Source: a virus. Taken from it: 41,162 bases of DNA. The notes beneath the pieces are model-generated. The model was not told where the DNA came from and did not search any database. It saw only the letters and a list, made by a program, of their open reading frames with translations. The stretch lies in the IMG/VR virus record IMGVR_UViG_3300009709_000009, positions 1-41,162 of that record. One strand, 5' to 3'. Shown here in pieces: positions 2,208 to 29,952 of this stretch. Position numbers and translations under genes: made by a program. How positions within the stretch are numbered: position 1 is the first letter of the stretch; each line of letters opens with the position of its first letter.

Positions 2208-2882
2208 TTACATTCCTTTTGCAAGGTTTACCAATGACGCATGATTCAAACGACCATCGGGACGTGTGCTTGTTTTCTGTTCAATCATATCACGTAATTC
2301 ATCCTCTGTCATCGCTTCATACAGTTCTTCCTCGACGGGAGGGATAACAGTAGAAGGGCTTTCAAGTTCTGAAATACGCTTTTTAAGCGCTTCAATTTCG
2401 CTTGCAGCTGCGGCAGACGGAGAATGATCCTGCGTGTATTTACGAGCAAATTCTTTAAGGGTATTACCAAGCATTCCAAGCGACTTAAGCTTGTCTCCTT
2501 CAAGGCTGTTTAGAGCCTCAATGCTGTAAATACGATGAACGCGGCAAATAGAAAGCTGCTCTTCTGTCACGCCATAAGGGCGCAACATTTCAAGAGGTGT
2601 TCCCATTGCCTGCTGAGGATTGCCTTCTTTGAACATGCGATACTGGTCAGCCCAACGTTCAGCATAAGTGATGGACTTATTGCCTTCACGCCGCCAAGAC
2701 TGATGCGCCGGGAACACAGGGGCGTAGTGGTTAGACCCCGCGAACCGGACCTCTACAACTTCACGCATTTCAAGAACAGCATGTCCAGCCGTTTCCGACT
2801 TTGGGATGTTTTCAATCTCAACGATTTTAAAAAATGGCGTAACCGTAAGATCACGCGTATCAATCTCTACAACTTTAGTCAT
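2208..2882 (-). CDS. Hypothetical virion-module protein (224 aa).
   Basis: ORF track. It is the first gene after the capsid-proximal terminator. The C-terminus looks acidic and coiled-coil. Confidence 0.6.
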   Translation of the reverse strand: MTKVVEIDTRDLTVTPFFKIVEIENIPKSETAGHAVLEMREVVEVRFAGSNHYAPVFPAHQSWRREGNKSITYAERWADQYRMFKEGNPQQAMGTPLEMLRPYGVTEEQLSICRVHRIYSIEALNSLEGDKLKSLGMLGNTLKEFARKYTQDHSPSAAAASEIEALKKRISELESPSTVIPPVEEELYEAMTEDELRDMIEQKTSTRPDGRLNHASLVNLAKGM

Positions 2883-2904
2883 TTGTTTTCCTTGTCTGAG
2901 AAGG

Positions 2905-2931
2905 GGAGAAAAGGGGCCGAAGCCCCTTTAT
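2905..2931 (-). terminator. Intrinsic terminator or attenuator downstream of the capsid operon.
   Basis: On the minus-strand RNA: aaaggggc-UUCG-gccccuuu followed by UCUCCCCUU. It has an 8-bp GC-rich stem and a UUCG tetraloop, and sits 2 nt after the stop of 2933..3283. Confidence 0.7.
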
Positions 2932-2932
2932 A

Positions 2933-3283
2933 TTAAAGCGCAAAAACTCGAGCGTGGAAATAAGCGCCCGCTGGAACAGCTGCTGCTGGCCCTTGCAAAA
3001 CACCGCTGGCATTTGCAGTAGTTACGAACGATGCATCCATATTAACACGTGCACTGGCTGCAAGAGCCGTTGCACCGTTCTGGACCCAAATGTAATCGTA
3101 ACCGTCATCGCCTGTTTCACGATTACCCAGCTTATAAGATGGGGTCGTAATACCAGACAATGGAGCCGTAAGCGGGGTCACTCCCTGAATGCCAGTAAGA
3201 TCCCAATAAGGCAGACCGACGAAAACATCGTCGAGCTGTGGACCTAGCTGAGGGGTAGTTCGGAAAGGTACGGAGTTAGCCAT
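2933..3283 (-). CDS. Small capsid-associated protein, possibly decoration (116 aa).
   Basis: ORF immediately downstream of the major capsid gene and upstream of a terminator. The function comes from position only. Confidence 0.5.
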   Translation of the reverse strand: MANSVPFRTTPQLGPQLDDVFVGLPYWDLTGIQGVTPLTAPLSGITTPSYKLGNRETGDDGYDYIWVQNGATALAASARVNMDASFVTTANASGVLQGPAAAVPAGAYFHARVFAL

Positions 3284-3296
3284 ATCTCAAGCCTCC

Positions 3297-4307
3297 TTAT
3301 GCCGTGATGATGCGGTAAGAGAACAGTGGGTTCTCAAGAACGAGCTGACCAGACCAAACGATGCCCTGTGCTACTGCGTCCTGGTTGATCGGTCGCATAC
3401 CATCACCTGGATGGAAAGGCACAAACGACTGATCTGGGAACTCATAGAGAGCCAGACCCTTTGTATCGATACCAAAGATGGTGTTGGCTGGCATAACAGT
3501 GCCGATACCACCAGCTGCCACGATATCGACAGGACCTGCTGGGGTCATATAAGTAAGACCGGCGAAGCCAAGTCGGCCAAGACGTTCTGAAACGATACGC
3601 TGGTGAGCAACGAACGATGCAGAGATAGCCTGATAAGACAGGGAATCTGCGATCAGCAGGTCTGCATAACGACCATTACGCGAACGGTTCAAAGAGATAC
3701 GTTCGATGATTGGACGTGCAGTCGTGCTATCCCACGTGGTGAAACCAGAAACATCACCATTTGGAATATTGAAAGTCGAAGTTCGCCAGTTGGGGACAGT
3801 TGCGCGATCAATGCCGCCATATACGCCAGTGTTTGGAATAACTGGAATAGCGCCACCAAGGCCGATAAGTTCACGACCGCCCGCGCCGGTACCATCACCG
3901 ATCATTGCTACTTCAAACTCTTCCTTAACCGACTTTTCAGCCGCGTCAAGGTAGGTTTCCATAAGGTCAATGACTTCTTCTTCGCCGCGGGTGTACATCA
4001 ATTCAGTGCCGGTTAGCGAGAACATGCTAACAACGCGCGACCAGTTGAACACAGCAGAATTGAGAAGTTCTTTCGGTGTGATTTCGATCTTGTCATAGCC
4101 AGTGAACCACTGCGCCTGCAACTTATCGAACTGCACCGGAATGCGAAGTTCTGGACCGCCAGCGCGCTTTACACGAATACGACCTTCATCGCGAAGGATT
4201 CTGGTTAGTGGCGTGGCATTATAAACGATATCCTGCACCTCACGCGACCGTCGAGCAACGGCAGCAGTGAGAAGCTGGCGATAATTTCTATCCTGTACGA
4301 TAGCCAT
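3297..4307 (-). CDS. Major capsid protein (336 aa).
   Basis: The size and the position directly after an acidic, Q-rich scaffold-like gene fit a major capsid protein. The N-terminus MAIVQDRNYRQLLTAAVARRSRE... and the Gly-rich central loop are typical of T7/HK97-fold podovirus coat proteins. Confidence 0.75.
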   Translation of the reverse strand: MAIVQDRNYRQLLTAAVARRSREVQDIVYNATPLTRILRDEGRIRVKRAGGPELRIPVQFDKLQAQWFTGYDKIEITPKELLNSAVFNWSRVVSMFSLTGTELMYTRGEEEVIDLMETYLDAAEKSVKEEFEVAMIGDGTGAGGRELIGLGGAIPVIPNTGVYGGIDRATVPNWRTSTFNIPNGDVSGFTTWDSTTARPIIERISLNRSRNGRYADLLIADSLSYQAISASFVAHQRIVSERLGRLGFAGLTYMTPAGPVDIVAAGGIGTVMPANTIFGIDTKGLALYEFPDQSFVPFHPGDGMRPINQDAVAQGIVWSGQLVLENPLFSYRIITA

Positions 4308-4310
4308 TAA

Positions 4311-5477
4311 TTAAGCTCCTGAAGCTCGCTTGAGTTTACGCATTTCGTCCTCAAGCATTTCACGTGTTGACATTTTCTTTTCCGGTTCTTTGACCTCTAG
4401 AACATTTCCCGGAGAAGACTTGATTGATTTGTTGCCGTTGAAGTCTTCGTCAACACGGCGTTCAGTGCTAGCCTGCCTTGTCTGTAGCTGCTCGACATTT
4501 GAAGAAGGGTTAATCCTTTCAGCCATGTCGTATGCCGCCGCCAGCTTATCAGCAGGGCTTAAATTTGCTGGTATCTTACCAGATTGCAGGAAAAAAGCAA
4601 TATCCTGCTCTAGCTCATGATAGCGTGGATGTTCGCGAATAAAAGGCTCGATATATGTTTGATGAGCCATTTGAGCCTGCATAGCGTTTAGCTGCTGCTT
4701 AAGGCCGTCAACTTCTGGATTCTGTTGAGGCTGCTGCATTTGTTGGCGTTGCGGCTGCTGCGATACGTATTCATGTGGAGACTGCGCCATATGCTGTGCC
4801 AACTGCTGCGGCGGGATGCCGTATGCCCTCAAGATGTGGGACAGCGCCTGCTGTGGATGCATATTCAGATTGGAAAATAGCTGTTTAAACCCTTCGGCAG
4901 GATCTTCACTAAACTTACGTTCAATCCCCACATAGTTTTGCAAAGCCTGCTTGACAGTAACATTGTGCTGCTTGCCTAGCTCTTCATACTCTCGCAGTTC
5001 CTCACGGAATTGATGGGATTCCCGGTACTGGGAAACCTCCTGTTCGTGCTCCTTGACGATGCGAGAAACTTCTGACTGCACTTCATTAGGCGTATTTCGC
5101 CATAGTTCTTTTGCCCTTGGAAGAAAGCGAGCAGGAGGCTCAGGGCGGTCTCGGTTCTCAGACTTCCGTTCGGCTGGCTGTTCCTTAACCTGCTCGCTTG
5201 CGTCGATTTCCTTTTCAGGAACGGCGCTCTTTCCAGCCTTATCGTCAGTAACGATAGGCTTAACCTCTTTGACAACAGGTTCTTTTGGAGCTTTTTCTTT
5301 ATCAAGCTCTGCCTTCAATGAATCTCGTACAGATTCAGGCTTTGCGGGTGCCTCGGTCTTTACTTCTTCAACAGGGGTGTCTACCTTGCCGCCGCCTGAA
5401 CGTGCGTGTGTAGCATTATCTTCAAGCGTTGTTGATACTGGTTCCACTGCCGTTTGCTGAATTACTTCATCGGTCAT
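4311..5477 (-). CDS. Scaffolding protein (388 aa).
   Basis: Highly charged K/E/P-rich N-terminus, a Q-rich helical centre (QQPQRQQMQQPQQNPE) and a position directly upstream of the capsid gene. Confidence 0.65.
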   Translation of the reverse strand: MTDEVIQQTAVEPVSTTLEDNATHARSGGGKVDTPVEEVKTEAPAKPESVRDSLKAELDKEKAPKEPVVKEVKPIVTDDKAGKSAVPEKEIDASEQVKEQPAERKSENRDRPEPPARFLPRAKELWRNTPNEVQSEVSRIVKEHEQEVSQYRESHQFREELREYEELGKQHNVTVKQALQNYVGIERKFSEDPAEGFKQLFSNLNMHPQQALSHILRAYGIPPQQLAQHMAQSPHEYVSQQPQRQQMQQPQQNPEVDGLKQQLNAMQAQMAHQTYIEPFIREHPRYHELEQDIAFFLQSGKIPANLSPADKLAAAYDMAERINPSSNVEQLQTRQASTERRVDEDFNGNKSIKSSPGNVLEVKEPEKKMSTREMLEDEMRKLKRASGA

Positions 5478-10102: not shown

Positions 10103-10149
10103 GTTATGGCCTCATGTTGCTATAGCAAACGCAAGGTAGCACGTTGGGC

Positions 10150-10180
10150 AAGAAAAGAAAAGGCCCACCGAAGTGAGCCT
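10150..10180 (-). terminator. Intrinsic terminator between the terminase operon and the portal gene.
   Basis: Minus-strand RNA: aggcucac-UUCG-gugggccu followed by UUUCUUUUCUU. The one non-Watson-Crick position is a U-G wobble on the minus strand but a C-A mismatch on the plus strand, which supports minus-strand function. Confidence 0.65.
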
Positions 10181-11373: not shown

Positions 11374-12927
11374 TCACCTTCTACGCTGCATTGTCAACGG
11401 CTTTGCGTAAACAGCGTTATAATCTTGCACAGGATCTGGTTTCTTCATTTTGCCGGTCGTCATTCTATCCATTAGCTGACCTGCAAGGCCCAACGCGTCA
11501 ACCTGGTCATCATGAACTCCTACAGGGAAACTCATCATTTCGCTTATCAACGCTTCCAAACCCGGCAAGTCCTCACTGATATACAGACCAGACAAAGCCA
11601 TGCGACCACGAATAGACTGCGCGCGCACGGACTTGTCGCCACGGGTTGGGAACTGCTCACGCGCCACATACGAACCAGTCTCCAGCATACGTTTCACAAG
11701 GAACGGTCCAACACCTGATTTAATCTGTCCTGTTTCCTCAGCCCAACCAATCGGCTTCCACTTGCGTACCAAATCACAGAATGAATCAACCCACCTATCA
11801 GAGGATGATTGCTGCCGCCATAGATCTAGTAGCCAAACACGATCCATAGAATCAACGCCAACGACAACGTGAACAGTGTAATCTCCACCGTTGTTTGTAA
11901 CTGCATAGTCGGACGCTCCGTAGATTGAAATGGTTTCCCGCAGCGGGATCTGAGATGCGGGGACAATCTTGAGCCATTCCTTTTTGAAATAATCACCGCT
12001 GTCTGGGGCTGGCCGCTGCTGGAATAGTGCTGACCATGTGCGCGGGTTCTTTCTAAAGTTAGACCAATGCCTTTCATCAAACCACTCAGGCCAGATCATT
12101 TCCCCAATCTTACGACCTAAAGGATCATCTTCACGTTCGCACTCGGCTTGGAGGCTGATAACCTCCCATTCAAATCCATCCTTCCCCATGATAATACCGG
12201 ACTCACCGTTGTAGTTATCAGGTAGAATGCGTCCCGTAGGGTCATCCTCATGCCATCGAGTAAGAATGAAGGCCACACTTCCTCCAGGCTTTAAGCGCGT
12301 CTTTACTGAATCCTCATACTCGTCCCATGTCCGCTGTCTGATAGTTTCTGAATCTGCGTCCTGACGCCCTTTGATTGGATCGTCGATAGCAATGAAGTCA
12401 GCACGGTTACCTGTGATGCCGGAGATAATACCGCCTGACATATATTCAGACCCATTAGCCAGCGCCCATTCGTCAGCGGCCGCCTGATCTCCAGAAATTC
12501 CCGTATCGAACAATGCGGTGTATTTTTTTTGCTTAATGATTGATCGTGTTCTGCGGCCAAACTTCTTAGCCATGTCAGACCCGTAAGACACTCCAATCAT
12601 TCTGAAGCCGGGGGTAGTTCCCATAGCCCATGAAGGCGCCACCACGCTGGCATATGTTGACTTAGCGCTACCTGGCGGCATGAACAACATAAGGCGACCG
12701 TAAGGCTTCTCGATACAACGCTGTAAAGCCTCAAGCATCAATATGTGATGATGAGCAAGAACCGTCTCCGCTAGATGCAAGGCCGTATCACTTGTGTCGT
12801 CCTGATCCTCAACAGGCGCGCCTGGAACATCAATATATCGGGCATAGTCTACAAGCGATCGCCTAGCCTTCCGTCTTGCTAGAAGCTCCTGCGCGGCCTG
12901 CTGTGGCGATATGGGCAAGTTCTTCAT
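11374..12927 (-). CDS. terL: Terminase large subunit (517 aa).
   Basis: Walker A-like MPPGSAKST, an N-terminal ARRKARRSLVDYARYI motif, a C-terminal nuclease-type region (YGASDYA...DD) and a position after terS. Confidence 0.9.
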   Translation of the reverse strand: MKNLPISPQQAAQELLARRKARRSLVDYARYIDVPGAPVEDQDDTSDTALHLAETVLAHHHILMLEALQRCIEKPYGRLMLFMPPGSAKSTYASVVAPSWAMGTTPGFRMIGVSYGSDMAKKFGRRTRSIIKQKKYTALFDTGISGDQAAADEWALANGSEYMSGGIISGITGNRADFIAIDDPIKGRQDADSETIRQRTWDEYEDSVKTRLKPGGSVAFILTRWHEDDPTGRILPDNYNGESGIIMGKDGFEWEVISLQAECEREDDPLGRKIGEMIWPEWFDERHWSNFRKNPRTWSALFQQRPAPDSGDYFKKEWLKIVPASQIPLRETISIYGASDYAVTNNGGDYTVHVVVGVDSMDRVWLLDLWRQQSSSDRWVDSFCDLVRKWKPIGWAEETGQIKSGVGPFLVKRMLETGSYVAREQFPTRGDKSVRAQSIRGRMALSGLYISEDLPGLEALISEMMSFPVGVHDDQVDALGLAGQLMDRMTTGKMKKPDPVQDYNAVYAKPLTMQRRR

Positions 12928-13291
12928 CAGTCAATTCACCTAAGCTGTGCTTGTGTTCCATACTTCCAGTCTGGTGGACTTCTTTTCGCTCTGTATAGTC
13001 TTCACGAAAGCGCGCTTCCATAGACTTCTTCCACACAGCGGCGTTAAAACCACCGCCGCCCAGAAACATGCCTTCACGACCTGCTTTTTCCCACCAAGAC
13101 TGGCAATGAGCTTGTGCTCTAGTGAGCGCTTCTAAAAACTCAGGATTTTCAGCGGCCCAATTATCAATTGTCTGTCTGGAAACATCGAAATGAGCAGCCA
13201 TTTGAACTAAGGAATCTCCTTGTTTCCCTAGCTCAATGACCGTCTCACAATATTCTGGTTTGTATAGGGTTGGCCTTCCACCAGCCATCAC
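12863..13291 (-). CDS. terS: Terminase small subunit with an HTH (about 141 aa).
   Basis: GGRPTLYKPEYCETVIELGKQG...QTIDNWAAENPEFLEAL is the classic terS N-terminal HTH pattern. The start is GTG 13291 or ATG 13288. The 3' end overlaps terL by 65 nt. Confidence 0.85.
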   Translation of the reverse strand: MMAGGRPTLYKPEYCETVIELGKQGDSLVQMAAHFDVSRQTIDNWAAENPEFLEALTRAQAHCQSWWEKAGREGMFLGGGGFNAAVWKKSMEARFREDYTERKEVHQTGSMEHKHSLGELTDEELAHIATAGRAGASSKTEG

Positions 13292-13539
13292 TAATTACCT
13301 TTGCATGAGTTGATAGTAGCTGAAACATAATATGCAATCATTTTATTGATTTGGTCTTCACCTCTATCAAGAAGTGCTTCACCCCCTGAAAATGTAACAT
13401 TAGTTAAATTTTTTCCGTCTTTATTGAATTCAGCCTTAAATCCATTATCAATGTATTCATGGAATGACATTTCAATTCCATTTTCATCAATAAATGGCGT
13501 AATAAGCTTTTTAAATGTGTTCTTAATTTTCTCCATCAC
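13291..13539 (-). CDS. Hypothetical protein (82 aa), AT-rich.
   Basis: ORF track. It has a 4-nt start/stop overlap with the upstream gene. Confidence 0.55.
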   Translation of the reverse strand: MMEKIKNTFKKLITPFIDENGIEMSFHEYIDNGFKAEFNKDGKNLTNVTFSGGEALLDRGEDQINKMIAYYVSATINSCKGN

Positions 13540-13718
13540 TCATATTCCTTCAAACATTTAACCTGAGCTTCCAGGAATTCAATCACACTTGCCACCGGCA
13601 TGCTTGTCACCATCAAATTTACTGCGCATTCACAAAATTCCATTGATTGTCTTGCAAGGAAGAAATTGACTTCATCATCCACTATATCCTGAAGAGCCTT
13701 CTTGCCTTTCTTTGACAT
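13536..13718 (-). CDS. Hypothetical protein (60 aa from ATG 13718).
   Basis: GGGAGG lies ~9 nt upstream of ATG 13718, which sits just after the GcrA-like stop codon. The track ORF extends to 13769. Confidence 0.5.
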   Translation of the reverse strand: MSKKGKKALQDIVDDEVNFFLARQSMEFCECAVNLMVTSMPVASVIEFLEAQVKCLKEYE

Positions 13719-13719
13719 G

Positions 13720-14388
13720 TCATGCATCCTCCCTGACAATATTTTTATCATAGCTCTTTCGATAGCCAAAGTCTATGCCTGAGTATCCCGTTGTTTTCGT
13801 GACATGATGCTGGCAGTATCGGCTTTTCAGGTGGCGTGTATGAGAGCAAAACCTATGATTTTCTGGTCCCGATGTTAAAGGATAGAAACATCCAGTGTTT
13901 TCGACCAATGATAGACCTGGCAACCTTCCAATCTCGTATTCATCAAGACCCGGATCAAAGTATGTAGCTGTTTTCGTCCCATGGAATTGTGGATGAACGC
14001 GTCCTGCATTCGAGATAGTCTTTGCCTTCTTAGGCTTATCTGGTGATGATGCACGACGACTAGGCATGATAGACCTGTTGCGTTGAGCAAGAAGTTGAAC
14101 AGCGTTTGTTGTCACACCCATTTCTGAGGCTATTTCCTCGTATGTCTTACCCTCTTTCCATAGCTTTCCGGCTTTTACAATATCCAGGTTCTGAATAAAA
14201 GACCCTCTTTTTTTAATCCCTTCCTTTGTTGGAAACAGGTCCTTATTCCGGCTTGCCATTCCTGAAACCATGTTTCGGGTTATTCCATATTCCTTTGCTA
14301 TATCGAGATATGATTTGTCATTTGCCCACATAAGAGCGCATGCCTGAATGATCTCCGGCGTCCAGCGCCAGCTTGCACGAGGGGTCAT
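13720..14388 (-). CDS. GcrA-like cell-cycle regulator with a duplicated N-terminal HTH (222 aa from ATG 14388).
   Basis: There are two copies of the GcrA N-domain pattern: W-TPEIIQACALMWANDKSYLDIAKEYGITRNMVSGMASRN and IVKAGKLWKEGKTYEEIASEMGVTTNAVQLLAQRN. The GcrA-type C-terminus is GCFYPL..GPENHRFCSH...SRYCQHH. An AAGGAGA RBS lies 7 nt before ATG 14388. Confidence 0.75.
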   Translation of the reverse strand: MTPRASWRWTPEIIQACALMWANDKSYLDIAKEYGITRNMVSGMASRNKDLFPTKEGIKKRGSFIQNLDIVKAGKLWKEGKTYEEIASEMGVTTNAVQLLAQRNRSIMPSRRASSPDKPKKAKTISNAGRVHPQFHGTKTATYFDPGLDEYEIGRLPGLSLVENTGCFYPLTSGPENHRFCSHTRHLKSRYCQHHVTKTTGYSGIDFGYRKSYDKNIVREDA

Positions 14389-14546
14389 TTGGAATTCTCC
14401 TTCTGATAACGCCGCACAGCTAACACCAATTGAGACATACATTCCGCACTGTGCTTTCCCGCCTTATGCGCTTCAACTTCTTTGATTAGGACTTCCACCA
14501 GGTGGTTGCGTGAGCCGCCTTTGCGGGAGTTGTTAGGGTCGTACAT
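14385..14546 (-). CDS. Hypothetical 53-aa protein, translationally coupled to the GcrA-like gene.
   Basis: Not in the track because it is under 60 aa. I translated it by hand as MYDPNNSRKGGSRNHLVEVLIKEVEAHKAGKHSAECMSQLVLAVRRYQKENSK. A GAGGAG RBS precedes it. Its stop forms an ATGA overlap with ATG 14388. Confidence 0.5.
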   Translation of the reverse strand: MYDPNNSRKGGSRNHLVEVLIKEVEAHKAGKHSAECMSQLVLAVRRYQKENSK

Positions 14547-15747: not shown

Positions 15748-15776
15748 TTCATTTCTCCACTCGTTTCAATAGCCCC

Positions 15777-15804
15777 ACACTACACCATAGCAAACGCATG
15801 TCAA
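15777..15804 (-). promoter_or_regulatory. Candidate leftward sigma70-type promoter.
   Basis: Minus strand: TTGACA (15804-15799), a 16-nt spacer, then TAGTGT (15782-15777), about 30 nt upstream of the first leftward ATG. Confidence 0.45.
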
Positions 15805-16200
15805 CATAAAATGTGAGAAAAAGTTAAGTCATTGATTTTGTTAATTATCTCGTTTTTTCTCTAAAAATCTCAACAGAAAAGAGAGGTATGTTTTCTTTTA
15901 AAATCAATGACTTAAATTACGTTTACACATTATTTCGGGATTTCGGTATATAAGGGGTAATATTGGCAATCATAATATCAGGAGTCCTATAAGGGGTAAG
16001 CACTTGATTTTATTAAATAATAAAGATTCTAACCTATACAGTATCTAGAGATACTATATTCTTCTTTACCCCTCTATTACAGGAAAAGCCGAGATAATGT
16101 GTAAATGCATGCTAAAACATTGAAAAGTAAAAACAATCCTTATCTCAAAAATCAATGTATTTTAGCGGGATTATGTGTAAAACAAAAAACACCGACAAGG
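15805..16200. promoter_or_regulatory. AT-rich divergent control region or candidate origin with three repeat families.
   Basis: Family A: AAAATCAATGAC(TTAA) at 15900-15915, its perfect 16-nt inverted copy at 15824-15839, and a partial copy at 16147-16158. Family B: ATAATGTGTAAA at about 16094-16105, TTATGTGTAAAA at about 16171-16182, and an inverted copy at about 15921-15933. Family C: TATAAGGGGTAA at 15949-15960 and 15988-15999, plus an inverted AGGGGTAA at about 16067-16074. A further palindrome, agtatct-ag-agatact, lies at about 16050-16065. Confidence 0.6.
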
Positions 16201-16201
16201 G

Positions 16202-16230
16202 TTGACAAGCTCCAAATGATGGATTATTCA
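16202..16230 (+). promoter_or_regulatory. Candidate rightward sigma70-type promoter.
   Basis: TTGACA (16202-16207), a 17-nt spacer, then TATTCA (16225-16230). It is followed by an AAGGAGAAAA RBS and ATG 16263. Confidence 0.5.
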
Positions 16231-16262
16231 TAAATAATTACTTTTATAAAGGAGAAAACAAA

Positions 16263-24835: not shown

Positions 24836-24924
24836 AATGAATTGAGCGGATAGGACGGCCATCCGAAAAGCAATTACGCTGATTGCCTGCCGCTATTTCA
24901 AAAGCGAACCTTAGCGAGGTTTAT

Positions 24925-25440
24925 ATGACGGAAATATCCCCAGAATATCTTAGATCTATTTTGACTTATTATCCGGATAATGGTCTTCTTTTCTGGAAAT
25001 ACAGGGAAGATTATTACAAGAGATGGAACGTTAGATATGCCAACAATCAGGCGTTCAATGTTACCTCTGATAGTGGATATTATAGAGGTTCCATAAATAA
25101 AAGATGGTTCCAAGCGCACAGAGTGGCGTGGGCTATTCATTATGGTGAGTGGCCTAGTGATATATTAGATCACATAAATATGGTAAAAACAGACAATAGA
25201 ATATGCAATTTAAGAATTGCTAGCAAATCAAAAAATGCAATGAACATAAGAAAACATTCAGATAATAGATCTGGATATAAAGGTGTAGACTTTAGCAAGG
25301 TAAGTAACAAATGGAGAGCTAGGATAATGAAGTTAGGAGTAAATTATAATCTTGGATTTTTTGATAGTAAAGAAGAAGCATATGAAGCTTATTGTATAGC
25401 GGCATCTAATTTACACAAAGAGTTTAAGAGGACAAAATGA
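24925..25440 (+). CDS. HNH_3 plus AP2-domain homing endonuclease-like protein (171 aa), AT-rich.
   Basis: HRVAWAIHYGEWP..ILDHINMVKTDNRICNLR (HNH_3) followed by SGYKGVDF..SNKWRARI...NLGFFDSKEEAYEAY (AP2). GAGG lies 6 nt before ATG 24925. Confidence 0.8.
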   Translation: MTEISPEYLRSILTYYPDNGLLFWKYREDYYKRWNVRYANNQAFNVTSDSGYYRGSINKRWFQAHRVAWAIHYGEWPSDILDHINMVKTDNRICNLRIASKSKNAMNIRKHSDNRSGYKGVDFSKVSNKWRARIMKLGVNYNLGFFDSKEEAYEAYCIAASNLHKEFKRTK

Positions 25441-26542: not shown

Positions 26543-26611
26543 TTCAGTGTGGATATATGGCTTGGTAGCGTTTGCTATCATTGCTGTTGGATATGTGGAA
26601 GGATTGCCGGT

Positions 26612-28012
26612 ATGACCATCCCAGATGAAGCAGTGCAGGCAGCACAGAACGAGTTCAACAAATTCGGCTATACCGCCCCCAATGAAAAGGAGTTGATTGC
26701 CGCCATCACAGCCGCCCTGCCTTTCCTGCAAGGGGTGAAGGTGAAGGCGCTGGAGTGGCCTAAAAAGCTGGAGTTTAATCATGTGCTTGAGGCTGGGGTA
26801 GCGCGTTACCGGCTGATAAACTCATACGATGATGTTTATAGATGTTCGGTAGTGCCATACGATGACGACGCAGCCGACTTATGCGGAAATACGACCTTAG
26901 AAGGCGCCAAAGCCGCAGCGCAGTCCGACTATGAGGCTCGTATAAGGTCCGCAATCGAGTTGTTAGGAAATTCCGAACAACTCAACGATGTGCATACTAC
27001 GCACACCCTTTCTGAGCAGACGACCGATATGGGAAATCCCATAACGCTCGATATCGGAAAACCGATAACGGACAAAACTACGCAGATGGTTATTGCTGAG
27101 GCCATTGAGAATGTATGGTGGCAGACGAGGGATTGTGATGTTGAAGAAATAGATAGCATTATCGATCACTTGCGCAACAATGGCTTGCTGGTTGTTGGAA
27201 GTCAGCGCTTTCAACAGATGGCAGATGCCATCCAACAAGCGTCAGCTTATCTCGCCTTAACGCAACCCAACAGCGCAGAAAAATTACTCGCTGATCTTGA
27301 TGCAGCATTGAAACCCGTTGCGGGAATTCCCGTTTCGTCCCCATCCCTACGCGCGCAGGCGTTGGAGGAAGGTAAGCAGCTATATGGTCCATTCGGCCAT
27401 TTGACCGGGGATAGAAACCTTTCAGAGGATACGTGGGAGGTTTATGACGAACCTGCCGCCACTGTCGGAGATATTTTTTCGATCCCTCTTTATGCCCTCT
27501 CCGACCCATTCAAGGAAATCGGCTTAGATGTGGATGTCAAAGCAGATGTTCTGTCACCTGATCCCGCTCAGTATCTTGAGATGGCAGTACAGGTTGCCGA
27601 TAAGGCAAATAAAGGCTGGCTGAAAAAGCGCGATGTGACCGCCAACAAAAAAGAAGCTAGCGATTATGAGACAATGGCTATTGCCGCCTCTCATATATCC
27701 ACAGCAATCCGCGCCCTCTCGTCTCAGTCTGTAGCGGACGAGGGCAAGGGCGAGTGGCGCGAAATTGAATACAATCACGCCTTGAAAGGTCGCCGCGTTA
27801 ACCCTGCATATTTTCCATCCACTGGCGAGGTTTGCGAAATCAGCGGACCTAATTGCGATGACGATAAGGGTTATACGTGGGGCGAAACCACAGTCCTATG
27901 GCAAAATGAAATGTTCGTTCTCTATGGGAAAGATGGGTATTGGCCTGTCCTTCATAAGCATGAACACGTCCTGTTTCGCCCCCTCCCAGACTCACCAGGA
28001 GCGTCGGAATGA
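26612..28012 (+). CDS. Large ORFan (466 aa from ATG 26612).
   Basis: ORF track. The track starts at GTG 26549; ATG 26612 has GGAAGGA 9 nt upstream. I recognised no catalytic motif. Confidence 0.6.
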   Translation: MTIPDEAVQAAQNEFNKFGYTAPNEKELIAAITAALPFLQGVKVKALEWPKKLEFNHVLEAGVARYRLINSYDDVYRCSVVPYDDDAADLCGNTTLEGAKAAAQSDYEARIRSAIELLGNSEQLNDVHTTHTLSEQTTDMGNPITLDIGKPITDKTTQMVIAEAIENVWWQTRDCDVEEIDSIIDHLRNNGLLVVGSQRFQQMADAIQQASAYLALTQPNSAEKLLADLDAALKPVAGIPVSSPSLRAQALEEGKQLYGPFGHLTGDRNLSEDTWEVYDEPAATVGDIFSIPLYALSDPFKEIGLDVDVKADVLSPDPAQYLEMAVQVADKANKGWLKKRDVTANKKEASDYETMAIAASHISTAIRALSSQSVADEGKGEWREIEYNHALKGRRVNPAYFPSTGEVCEISGPNCDDDKGYTWGETTVLWQNEMFVLYGKDGYWPVLHKHEHVLFRPLPDSPGASE

Positions 28013-28314
28013 GTAATCAAGAACCGATGTTCCCGATCCTCAACGATCCTATGATCAAGAGCATCCCTTGGGCGGTGATGTTGCCTCACGAGAAGCAGGC
28101 ACAGCGCAACCATAGTCAAACCTTACGAGGGCTTGCAGGACGCGGAGGGTTAAGCATCCATGAAGCCTACCACATTATCAGAGATGAAGAGTGGCCTTAC
28201 CGCACATTCAAGCGAAGCAAGCTCAATGATGCCAAGTACAGGATGCAACTCATGATCGTACTGCATGAGTTCGAAGCCACCCGCCCGACAGGAGGCAGCA
28301 ACCATGGCGAATGA
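28009..28314 (+). CDS. Hypothetical protein (101 aa).
   Basis: ATGA overlap with the upstream stop. SIPWAVMLPHEKQAQRNHSQTLRGLAGRGGLS is a pattern I have seen in prophage hypotheticals. Confidence 0.6.
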   Translation: MSNQEPMFPILNDPMIKSIPWAVMLPHEKQAQRNHSQTLRGLAGRGGLSIHEAYHIIRDEEWPYRTFKRSKLNDAKYRMQLMIVLHEFEATRPTGGSNHGE

Positions 28315-28984
28315 AAAAGGTCCGCTATTAACGGCTCTAGAGGAAGTTAGAAAAACTCCCACCATAACATCTCAAGCCCTAGCCGCACGCTCTGCTAAGA
28401 ACACCCTCCCCGCCGTGCCGGTCGAGGGGTTGGATCGGTATGGGCTGAACTGGCACGACGAAATGGAGCCGAATAGTGAAGGCGATTACGTCCTTTTCTC
28501 GCAGTCCGAGGCCAACATTGCGGCGGAACTCACTATGCAAGTAGAGATAGCTCAATTAAGGCATCTTTATACTCACTTAGTTAATGGGACATTTAAAGAT
28601 GTTAAAGAATTAGCCAATGGTCTTTTATCTACAGTGATTGCTAGTCTTGAAAGACAACTCGAAGCGAAGGATGCGCGGGTTAAGGAGTTGGAGGCTGAGA
28701 ATGCCGCTCTCGAAAAACAGGCCTTGCGGGACCGTAGTCTAGCGAACGAAACGCATAGCGATGCAACTCTTTGGCAATTCTCCGTCGATATGGGCGACCA
28801 TCCTTCATTGCTCGTAAAGGTCTGGATGCAGCGCAAAGCCCTCGAAACCCAACTCGCGGCGGCTCGGAAGGCGTTGGAAGATATGGTGTCCGAATACGAT
28901 GCGGTCGATCTATCCCACGACGAACCGGCGTCAATGGTTTCAGCAGTTGAAGTTGCCCGCGCCGCCTTGGAGTCCAAGCCATGA
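28304..28984 (+). CDS. Coiled-coil protein (226 aa from ATG 28304).
   Basis: AGGAGG lies 9 nt before ATG 28304. The central region LERQLEAKDARVKELEAENAALEKQAL looks like coiled coil. Confidence 0.55.
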   Translation: MANEKGPLLTALEEVRKTPTITSQALAARSAKNTLPAVPVEGLDRYGLNWHDEMEPNSEGDYVLFSQSEANIAAELTMQVEIAQLRHLYTHLVNGTFKDVKELANGLLSTVIASLERQLEAKDARVKELEAENAALEKQALRDRSLANETHSDATLWQFSVDMGDHPSLLVKVWMQRKALETQLAAARKALEDMVSEYDAVDLSHDEPASMVSAVEVARAALESKP

Positions 28985-29187
28985 AGGATTATTGCGCAGA
29001 ATGCGGTTGTAAGCTCCCACTTCACATGCTCGATGCTAAACCCACAATGACATTTTGGCTCCGCCTTGTTTCGCTGTTTCGCGGGCAGTCCTTCATGCTC
29101 ATGTATGCTGCGCACCGTGGATACGACTTTGACCGCCTCGAATGTCATGTCTGCTACGGCGATGGATACGTGGAGGTCAAGCCATGA
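28981..29187 (+). CDS. Small zinc-ribbon protein (68 aa).
   Basis: CAECGC...CHVCYGDG. ATGA overlap with the upstream stop. Confidence 0.5.
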   Translation: MKDYCAECGCKLPLHMLDAKPTMTFWLRLVSLFRGQSFMLMYAAHRGYDFDRLECHVCYGDGYVEVKP

Positions 29188-29408
29188 GCCTCGAATACAT
29201 CAAAGATTATTATTGTGTTCCAGCTCGCATTGGCGGTCGCATCAAATACACCGGCGACAAGCAACCTCAGTATGGAACGATTGAAGGCGCGCGCAATCAG
29301 TATCTTCTAATTCGCCTTGATGGTGAGAAACATGAACCGGGTTCGTACCATCCAACTTGGGAACTGACCTATCTGGAAAGCAGCGCACTAGGGGAGCAGA
29401 GCGAATGA
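29184..29408 (+). CDS. Hypothetical protein (74 aa).
   Basis: ATG 29184 overlaps the upstream stop (ATGA). Confidence 0.5.
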   Translation: MSLEYIKDYYCVPARIGGRIKYTGDKQPQYGTIEGARNQYLLIRLDGEKHEPGSYHPTWELTYLESSALGEQSE

Positions 29409-29638
29409 AGTTGACCAAAGCACGATTTGCTACCGTTTACAGCACCGTGGCGTTACTGACTTTCGGTTACGCTTCGACTGATCCACGGTTTTCATGCGGG
29501 AGCGGCGCTCTTGCTCCAGAGGGCGACATGTCTTGTGCTGTTATGTTGGGCGCGACCTTAGCAGCGCCTGCATGGCCGATATTCTGGACGTGGGAAGGCT
29601 TCTCTATCGGTCGCCAAGACCTGAAAGGAGGGGAGTGA
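29405..29638 (+). CDS. Small membrane protein (77 aa).
   Basis: Hydrophobic segments VYSTVALLTFGYA and AVMLGATLAAPAWPIFW. ATGA overlap with the upstream stop. Confidence 0.5.
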   Translation: MKLTKARFATVYSTVALLTFGYASTDPRFSCGSGALAPEGDMSCAVMLGATLAAPAWPIFWTWEGFSIGRQDLKGGE

Positions 29639-29952
29639 TGACTCCAAGAGGTAAAATTCTAGAGGATATTTCAGACATAGCAGAATCTCATAATCTAATC
29701 CTTAAGGATTTATTAAATCCAGGTAGGTTTAAACATATCGTAAAAGCAAGAAACGAGGCTATGTGGTACGTTCATGAAAAATATGATAGATCTCTTACGC
29801 AGATAGGAAATATATTTAATATGCACCATTCCACAGTTTTAAATGGAATTGGAAGTCACATGGCAAAATCTGGAATAAAAGATGAGTGGGCCGATATTTA
29901 CCATCAAAGAAAAGAACGGAAAAGGATCAATCGTGAGATGCAGCGGGCCTAG
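29638..29952 (+). CDS. DnaA domain IV-only (DnaA-box-binding HTH) protein (104 aa), AT-rich.
   Basis: LKDLLNPGRFKHIVKARNEAMWYVHEKYDRSLTQIGNIFNMHHSTVLNGI aligns by eye to the DnaA C-terminal DNA-binding domain (..R...v.aR..AMyL....t..Sl..IG..F...HsTVl). A strong AAAGGAGGGGAG RBS precedes it. Confidence 0.7.
   Translation: MTPRGKILEDISDIAESHNLILKDLLNPGRFKHIVKARNEAMWYVHEKYDRSLTQIGNIFNMHHSTVLNGIGSHMAKSGIKDEWADIYHQRKERKRINREMQRA

Follow-up and report, generated by a model that had tools for sequence, protein, structure and literature searches.

A GcrA-like gene with two helix-turn-helix domains in a podovirus related to Brucella phage Tb

Among non-canonical activators the textbook case is GcrA, which rides on sigma70 as a monomer and uses one small domain to read one methylated site. 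In the canonical monomer the sigma70-interaction domain (SID) binds a groove on domain 2 of sigma70, and a single DNA-binding domain (DBD), carried on a linker of about 60 residues, reaches the methylated site in the promoter spacer or just past the start site (PMC5887438; PMC9976885). The bases and the methyl group are contacted by R33, N34, I37, G38 and R42, with Ile37 at the floor of the methyl pocket; the sigma70-contact residues found to be critical by two-hybrid analysis are K119, W120, D124, G129, F130, F132, Y142 and Y151; and the CCCH set of the Caulobacter crescentus protein is spaced C-X14-C-X9-C-X2-H (PMC5887438). For homologs encoded by phages, it has been suggested that they interfere with transcription or with the cell cycle of the host (PMC3556154). 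Here we describe a GcrA-like gene with two helix-turn-helix (HTH) domains in the IMG/VR virus record IMGVR_UViG_3300009709_000009, of which positions 1 to 41,162 were analysed; this whole stretch of 41,162 nucleotides is referred to below as the window.

Brucella phage Tb encodes a relative, gp04, of 225 amino acids and described as a 'putative GcrA-like protein', which shares 40% identity with the window protein over residues 9-218. Tb gp04 and its orthologs in phages Pr, R/C, Bk, Wb, Fz, S708 and others, for which 'cell cycle regulator' is also used as an annotation, have the same HTH-HTH-SID layout and a tail of the form GYxGIxxxY..YDRNI, and 41 GenBank brucellaphage records contain a protein of this type. 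The layout, the tail and the position of the gene between open reading frames (ORFs) of 53 and 60 amino acids are all found in the window, and the brucellaphage GcrA-like group thus gains a new and divergent member. Gp222 of phage phiCbK and other phage 'GcrA homologs' are also phage-encoded members of the Pfam GcrA family; phiCbK is another type of phage with another genomic context, and its gp222 was compared by description only. With moderate confidence, we read the gene product as a phage paralog of the alphaproteobacterial sigma70 cofactor GcrA, which would be made early and act as a sigma70-tethered cofactor of the host RNA polymerase with a bipartite DNA-reading head.

Domain architecture of the GcrA-like protein

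The gene and the parts of its product are as follows; the helices and the predicted local distance difference test (pLDDT) scores are those of an AlphaFold2 model.

13720-14388, minus strand: GcrA-like gene, 222 amino acids (MTPRASWRW...REDA), stop codon included; matches PF07750, and phrog_16311 at E=6.7e-33
14224-14376, minus strand: HTH1 (residues 5-55), equivalent to GcrA's DNA-binding domain; helices 11-22, 27-34 and 38-47, pLDDT about 90
14053-14193, minus strand: HTH2 (residues 66-112), a more divergent second copy; helices 70-78, 83-90 and 94-103, pLDDT 82-88
13954-14052, minus strand: disordered basic linker (residues 113-145), SRRASSPDKPKKAKTISNAGRVH..., pLDDT below 50 for residues 115-145
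13789-13953, minus strand: SID-like CCCH zinc-finger region (residues 146-200), with C167, C181, C192 and H195
13723-13788, minus strand: C-terminal tail (residues 201-222, GYSGIDFGYRKSYDKNIVREDA), kept only in the Tb-like clade, pLDDT about 40

The longest ORF called at this locus encodes 240 amino acids (13720-14442, minus strand). The supported start is the ATG at 14388, which is preceded by GGAG 8 nt upstream, is the position at which the homologs all begin, and gives the 222 amino acids that were also called on a contig from a Logan assembly.

An initial annotation, made from the letters alone, had proposed a GcrA-like regulator with a duplicated DNA-binding domain and the Cys/His-containing C-terminal region of GcrA, and each of these features was recovered. 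The Pfam GcrA model (PF07750) scored 47.3 bits against a cut-off of 26.9 and returned two matched stretches, the best of them aligning residues 75-196 to profile positions 13-141 of 155. Between residues 12-55 and 67-109 the identity is 39% (BLASTP E=1e-10, as a single comparison). The AlphaFold2 model, built with a 16-sequence alignment, contains two three-helix bundles (residues 5-55 and 66-112, pLDDT 82-92); its predicted template modelling score (pTM) of 0.31 indicates that the domains are not packed against each other.

When a family profile was made from 34 two-HTH relatives, its match to the solved structure of C. crescentus GcrA (7ye1_G, E=3.5e-18) fell into two pieces, with profile positions 7-46 (HTH1) aligning to GcrA 2-42 (DBD) and positions 144-211 to GcrA 91-158 (SID, i-Evalue 4.6e-8). 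Likewise, positions 6-46 of the profile, corresponding to HTH1, matched 5yiu (GcrA DBD, E=1.8e-8), and the SID-like region matched 5yix_B (GcrA-SID, E=3.7e-8). When the full-length model was compared with the PDB by Foldseek, no match was significant (best E=0.13); since a flexible multi-domain model is unsuitable for a fold search, sequence profiles were used instead. A profile match to the 'CAP repeat' of 8VD6 was set aside as irrelevant, this being a de novo designed repeat protein (PMC12339374).

With C. crescentus GcrA (PDB 5YIV, 5YIX and 7YE1) the window protein shares the three-helix HTH with a T-R-N-x-V-x-G-x-x-x-R recognition helix, the long disordered linker and the C-terminal CCCH zinc-finger domain, and its AlphaFold2 model shows the same kind of modular layout (PMC9976885). 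It differs in being phage-borne, in possessing two HTHs rather than one, and in the signature 'RN[RK]xxFP', which follows each HTH across the family (F52 is invariant and P53 nearly so). The plan of GcrA sensu stricto, that is one DBD, a linker of about 60 amino acids and one SID, is not that of the window protein, in which HTH2 takes the place of what is part of the linker in canonical GcrA.

The CCCH spacing of the window protein is C167-X13-C181-X10-C192-X2-H195, so that X13/X10 replaces the X14/X9 of GcrA and the overall C-to-H span is equal. In the model this SID-like region consists mostly of loops with a short helix (pLDDT 68-80). Among the 34 two-HTH relatives C167, C181 and C192 are invariant, H195 and Y191 (GcrA Y142) are nearly invariant, and F180 (GcrA F132) is the consensus residue. 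From the CCCH set and the homology to the SID, the region is predicted to be a zinc finger. With respect to the sigma70 contacts of GcrA, F132 (F180) and Y142 (Y191) are identical and W120 is conservatively replaced by Tyr (Y169). The basic patch of GcrA is C-terminal, whereas the basic stretch of the window protein lies in the linker (residues 113-135).

Origin and distribution of the second HTH domain

In the Pfam and NCBIfam alignments the part matched to GcrA is HTH2 together with the SID, since these two are contiguous; the isolated GcrA DBD and the family profile align to HTH1. HTH1 keeps R33, N34, G38 and R42 of GcrA as R38, N39, G43 and R47, with Ser in place of I37. HTH2 keeps the equivalents of N34 and R42 only; its recognition helix reads T-T-N-A-V-Q-L-L-A-Q-R, and the equivalent of I37 is Gln. 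When 56 HTH-HTH-SID proteins were compared, [R/K]33 was retained in 44 copies of HTH1 versus 21 of HTH2, N34 in 29 versus 14, and G38 in 37 versus 20. Single-HTH relatives resemble HTH1 in 22 cases and HTH2 in four, and the GcrA DBD too is closer to HTH1. The nearest neighbour of an HTH unit was its own partner in only 4 of 112 cases, for which reason a recent, lineage-specific duplication was rejected. Four close relatives (P0007-P0010), 48-65% identical, are without HTH2. Because HTH1 is the more GcrA-like, partners are rarely nearest neighbours and HTH2 is missing from these four proteins, HTH2 is an ancient extra copy inserted in the linker of canonical GcrA, and one that can be lost.

A pair of small helical DNA-binding domains with a short linker between them also occurs in Cbp1 (2LVS), in the DBDs of the Tc3 and SETMAR transposases and in the Pax paired domain, and such bipartite tandem-HTH domains typically read a longer, two-part site as a monomer. 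The likeness is an analogy only, with fold matches at E of at least 0.1 and a marginal profile match to 2lvs (E=2.3e-4), and none of these proteins has a sigma-binding zinc finger.

The distribution of the layout was followed by an exhaustive profile search of 1.84 billion cluster representatives, which yielded 2,749 proteins with E<=1e-3, of which 229 reached E<=1e-10. Using custom HTH and SID hidden Markov models (HMMs), we classified 160 proteins, comprising 11 close relatives and the best hits of the profile search. The query profile favours two-HTH hits, and the following counts are therefore not unbiased proportions.

HTH-HTH-SID: 55 of 160 proteins
three HTHs plus SID: 4 of 160
HTH-SID: 26 of 160
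HTH-HTH, some probably with a divergent SID: 29 of 160
three to nine HTHs, no SID: 41 of 160
other layouts (SID alone or a single HTH): 5 of 160

Among P0023-P0160, proteins that came from the search of the representatives, there are many tandem arrays of GcrA-DBD-like HTHs, in which the HMM counted 3 to 9 copies and the matched stretches numbered up to 11, in proteins of about 180 to 3,647 amino acids without a CCCH domain.

Proteins of the HTH-HTH-SID type were found in lytic phages, in Rhizobium genomes and on prophage-like contigs, and the contexts examined for the family genes all look phage-like. Three prophage-like contigs resemble the early regions of temperate phages and have the two-HTH gene in a rightward operon, after a repressor/Cro-like pair and one to three genes upstream of that for DnaB helicase. 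One protein from a prophage-like contig is also recorded on a 3.99-Mb Rhizobium contig, where its NCBI name is 'GcrA family cell cycle regulator', and relatives of the prophage-type subclade are present in Rhizobium genomes. The close clade has no relative in the GTDB species genomes, which fits a lytic phage. In a viral structure library the top matches were GcrA regulators of brucellaphage and of 'uncultured Caudovirales'. On a contig from a root metagenome (L020, 1348-2813), a two-HTH GcrA-like gene has a C5 cytosine methylase gene (PF00145) immediately behind it and next the gene for a DnaA_C-domain protein; the SID of this GcrA-like protein looks canonical (CKWPIGDP...FHFCG...PYCNYH).

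No description of the two-HTH layout was found in the literature searched. Being old and widespread, and known from phages sequenced long ago, the layout is not singular to this window: the Tb kin possess it, as do the 55 proteins counted above. It is common, then, and in the literature searched it has not been characterised. We conclude that it is a real variant of the GcrA design which, as far as we found, is undescribed.

Several of these contexts bear on the question of whether sigma70 is involved at all. The protein might instead bind DNA independently of sigma70, as an early-region repressor or anti-repressor, as a replication-origin or helicase-loading factor, or as a packaging accessory, and we consider this unlikely. 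In its favour, the prophage-like homologs lie one to three genes ahead of DnaB helicase, which is the usual place of origin-binding proteins, and in Tb-like phages the gene lies two small ORFs upstream of terS; many relatives are HTH arrays without a SID; about half of the sigma70-contact residues are changed; and the tandem HTH pair resembles transposase, Pax and Cbp1 domains in the weak fold matches mentioned above. However, neither the terS nor the DnaB neighbourhood is conserved family-wide, so neither suggests a family-wide role, and the repeat arrays of the early region, described below, do not covary with HTH1. In addition, conservation within the family is highest in the CCCH domain, which is homologous to a domain for which sigma70 binding is the only known role (PMC5887438).

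Genome context, methylation and candidate target sites

The window is the complete, circularly permuted genome of a podovirus of about 41 kb, which is kin to Brucella phage Tb (Perisivirus) and is oriented opposite to the Tb record. A nucleotide search against GenBank phages gave no match, and the kinship to Tb is seen at the protein level only. Nearly every ORF of the window has a Tb protein counterpart and the whole genome is syntenic with Tb, the identities being 97% for the major capsid protein, 87% for the portal, 85% for TerS, 76-78% for TerL and 74% for the primase-polymerase. In Logan assembly SRR5829574 there is a near-identical contig (L004; 41,069 bp) which encodes an identical GcrA-like protein (P0001). 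The features referred to in this section are the following.

14385-14546, minus strand: conserved 53-amino-acid ORF; phrog_27719 at E=1.5e-28, 75% identical to Tb gp03
13536-13718, minus strand: conserved 60-amino-acid ORF, the next one downstream after the GcrA-like gene (Tb gp05 region), called as a gene on L004; phrog_26977
12863-13291, minus strand: terS; phrog_309 at E=1.2e-28, Pfam Sf6_terminase, 85% identical to Tb gp06
11374-12927, minus strand: terL; 77.6% identical to Tb TerL, with Pfam Terminase_6N on the twin contig
15799-15804, minus strand: TTGACA hexamer (-35-like) within a conserved block, putative promoter element of the leftward operon
10161-10180, minus strand: terminator-like hairpin before the portal gene, an 8-bp stem followed by a T-run
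15748-16262: AT-rich divergent control region, 30% G+C, with several repeat families
26549-29400, plus strand: replaced block, whose Tb counterpart is gp42-gp44, including the PF01555 DNA methylase gp43
29494-29952, plus strand: small protein that contains the C-terminal HTH domain of DnaA (PF08299, E=2e-12)
24883-25440, plus strand: HNH endonuclease fused to an AP2 domain (Pfam scan)

The replaced block contains ORFs of 487, 101, 239, 68 and 88 amino acids that are unrelated to Tb and belong to no Pfam family, and its G+C content is 0.49 versus about 0.42 in the flanks. The window TerL, of 517 amino acids, aligns to Tb TerL in two pieces; the intein/HNH-endonuclease insertion that is annotated in the Tb TerL gene (2347-4893) is absent from it.

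The GcrA-like gene is part of a gapless leftward unit. Small ORFs and the 53-amino-acid ORF precede it there; behind it come two small ORFs, then terS and terL, and finally three further small ORFs. It had been annotated as lying in an early leftward operon just upstream of terS and terL; the leftward operon stands, whereas the gene and terS are not directly adjacent, being separated by two small conserved ORFs of 60 and 82 amino acids. The order of the slot in Tb is identical (gp03, the homolog of the 53-amino-acid ORF, then gp04, gp05, terS and terL), and in every Tb-like genome examined the gene occupies this slot in the first operon, beside the divergent control region. Just upstream of the first leftward gene, the window, Tb, L009 and L011 share a conserved block, GTGTTGACA...GAAGTGGAGAAATG, and we infer that this TTGACA-containing block functions as a promoter. 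The hairpin at 10161-10180 is the counterpart of the annotated terminator_1 of Tb, is conserved in L009 and L011, and probably ends the operon. Since the unit is gapless and lies behind a conserved promoter-like block, the GcrA-like gene is most likely expressed from the first promoter recognised by the host, and the same applies in the prophage-like contexts.

The stop codon of the 53-amino-acid ORF overlaps the start of the GcrA-like gene in an ATGA (plus-strand 'tcat' at 14385-14388), from which translational coupling had been proposed. The overlap itself is there, but as a conserved device the coupling did not hold: among the relatives only L009 and L010 keep the overlap. In Tb, unlike the window, the upstream ORF does not overlap the GcrA-like gene, and the gap between the two is 64 nt in Tb, 54 nt in L011 (as called) and about 220 nt in L012 and L013. 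The ATGA looks like tight phage gene packing rather than a conserved coupling device. The 53-amino-acid ORF is 72-81% identical across the Tb-like loci and is always just upstream of the GcrA-like gene; the 60-amino-acid ORF is 54-65% identical across the same loci.

At 39-63% identity across these loci, the GcrA-like protein is the fastest-evolving conserved gene product of its block; to Tb it is 40% identical, versus 75% for the 53-amino-acid ORF, 62% for the 60-amino-acid ORF and 85% for TerS. In Brucella phages EF4 (MT002975) and Y17 the gene is annotated as two ORFs, those of EF4 having 111 and 119 amino acids with at least one spanning the HTH region, a natural split. That this is the most divergent conserved gene of the block, that HTH2 has been lost in some relatives, and that EF4 and Y17 are both still lytic with the gene split, would be expected of an accessory gene that is dispensable or in decay and does nothing important for the window phage. 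We regard this as highly improbable, given that the reading frame is intact, that the position is the same in every Tb-like genome examined, and that the key Cys/His and HTH core residues are conserved.

The absence of a CcrM-like methyltransferase, remarked upon in the initial annotation, was borne out by tblastn and motif scans of the genome and Pfam scans of its unmatched ORFs: tblastn gave no match to Tb gp43 (PF01555) in the window, and the methylase motif [DNS]PP[YFW] occurs in no plausible gene of the window. The cognate GANTC methylase of the GcrA/CcrM module is not encoded in the window. Tb, by contrast, encodes the N6-adenine methylase gp43, a beta-class enzyme for which CcrM is one match among several of that class, at no better than E=8.7e-13. 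Host CcrM could supply methylation.

The further suggestion that the protein works on host-methylated DNA found no support. GANTC is two-fold depleted in the window, with 76 sites against about 154 expected from a first-order model or 127 from a third-order model, and is the most depleted of the 16 XYNY'X' palindromes; in Tb there are 62 sites against 151 expected. GANTC depletion is known in CcrM-bearing Alphaproteobacteria (PMC3973325), and that of the window mirrors such hosts and is not evidence for a GcrA-type circuit in the phage. YGAKTCG has a single site in the window genome. Three adjacent GANTC pairs lie within 20 bp, where about 2.7 are expected (Poisson estimate), which is no excess. 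When density was compared with the background, as had been recommended, uncovered gaps contained 7 of the 76 sites in 6.9% of the genome and manually curated intergenic DNA 4 of the 76 in about 4%. Two sites fall in the early control region, and their positions are not conserved in relatives. GANTC as a target, and with it a methylation-reader model, was not adopted because the motif is depleted, shows neither clustering nor clear enrichment, and has unconserved sites. Dependence on host methylation is possible and unsupported, the methyl-pocket Ile being replaced in both HTHs, by Ser in one and by Gln in the other.

The paucity of such sites also enters into another proposal, namely that the phage takes over its host by mimicry. 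The protein would then bind sigma70 in the place of GcrA, or bind the chromosomal GcrA boxes, and its main effect would be on the GcrA/CcrM regulon (replication and division). This is the published hypothesis for the phiCbK-like phages and phiCbK gp222 (PMC3556154; PMC9437464), and it agrees with the GcrA-type SID, with the GcrA-like HTH1, and with the presence of few GANTC and one YGAKTCG in the phage, so that GcrA-type sites are mostly host-side. We nevertheless think it improbable here. The recognition helix differs at I37, K39 and H41, so an identical site or methyl specificity is doubtful (PMC5887438), and the extra HTH2 argues for a different, longer site. Moreover, the score of the protein is far under the equivalog threshold given below, and its faster evolution than that of its neighbours (40% versus 62-85% identity to Tb) would be odd for a mimic of an interface that is highly conserved in the host.

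The control region of the window contains several repeats that might serve as operators. AAAATCAATG and ATGTGTAAA are each present three times and TATAAGGGGTAA twice (at 15949 and 15988), and these are all or nearly all of the genome-wide copies. The form (T)AAAATCAATG(ACTTA) is found in four copies and in both orientations (15825-15839, 15899-15914, 15997-16012 and 16148-16157), and ATAATGTGTAAA-like repeats lie at 16094 and 16170 and, inverted, at 15922. The control regions compared with it, those of Tb (L002, 40550-41148 plus 1-273), L011 (3337-3898) and L013, have seven to nine copies of GGGATC/GATCCC instead, that of Tb holding 9 of its 15 genome-wide copies. These arrays were not assigned to the GcrA-like protein because they do not covary with the HTH1 recognition helix. 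The exact 12-mer TGCGTTTGCTAT is present only twice in the genome, at 15787-15798, right after the TTGACA of the early leftward element, and at 10122-10133 (minus strand), right after the hairpin upstream of the portal gene. It was rejected as a candidate site since Tb, L009 and L011 do not have it at these positions.

Possible role in phage transcription

The scaffold of both ends of GcrA is kept, and this makes a sigma70-tethered factor with a two-part head the best-supported model. According to this model, the GcrA-like protein would be made early by the host RNA polymerase; its zinc-finger domain would dock, like that of GcrA, on region 2 of the primary sigma factor of the host, and the two tethered HTH heads would hold the holoenzyme at promoters with a bipartite site. 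The host RNA polymerase would in this way be re-programmed in a phage with neither a polymerase nor a sigma factor of its own, and the most likely targets would be the middle or late promoters of the phage. Since the methyl-pocket Ile is replaced, no methylase is encoded and GANTC is depleted, recognition probably does not depend on GANTC methylation, unlike that by GcrA. An accessory module for specificity or affinity is what HTH2 looks like, because closely related phages have lost it. An early regulator fits both the first-operon slot of the Tb-like phages and the early-right slot, after the repressor/Cro-like pair, on the prophage-like contigs.

The comparison with Tb, together with Pfam scans of the ORFs without a Tb match, revealed no RNA polymerase, sigma factor or methylase in the genome, in accordance with the initial annotation as regards the polymerase. 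Its suggestion that host RNA polymerase is redirected is reasonable in view of the homology to the SID, and is weakened by the divergence of the sigma70-contact residues.

Several observations weigh against this model. The protein misses the cut-off of the NCBIfam GcrA equivalog NF050816 by a wide span (29.7 bits against 280), and its relatives score 36.4 (Tb gp04) and 63.3 (P0049, the best two-HTH relative tried). Of the sigma70-contact residues that could be mapped, about half differ from GcrA: K119 is replaced by Phe, D124 by Ser and F130 by His, and Y151 has no clear equivalent. The tail (residues 201-222) is not basic, so a C-terminal basic patch of the GcrA type is lacking. The gene shares its transcription unit with terS and terL and there is no obvious internal promoter, 'early' being an inference on our part. 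GANTC is not clearly enriched near promoters or in intergenic DNA. The operator-like arrays have been swapped between otherwise syntenic phages and do not track the HTH1 recognition helix; L011, for instance, combines a window-like HTH1 with a Tb-like array, from which it follows that the operators probably belong to another regulator. Among GANTC, the repeat arrays and the shared 12-mer, no target site of the GcrA-like protein was found in the window, and the literature searched yielded no experiment on any phage GcrA-like protein.

A wider and more tentative reading concerns the family as a whole. The HTH-HTH-SID proteins could constitute a large, phage-borne class of sigma70 cofactors, separate from the GcrA of cells and having a methylation-independent bipartite head in which HTH2 is swappable, and serving as an early-to-late (or host-to-phage) switch. 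Such a switch might, just as tentatively, be proposed for many lytic and temperate alphaproteobacterial phages that lack an RNA polymerase.

Natural comparisons are available in the close relatives without HTH2 and in the brucellaphage gene that is split between the HTH pair and the zinc finger. If the model of a sigma70-tethered cofactor is true, a phage subfamily with two reading heads would show how the GcrA mechanism, known from a protein that reads one methylated site with one domain, can be re-targeted. The protein would be a candidate means by which brucellaphages and many rhizobial prophages, having neither a polymerase nor a sigma factor, steer the host RNA polymerase. For the biology of the brucellaphages, which include typing and therapy phages, it is among the very few regulator candidates that the genome offers.

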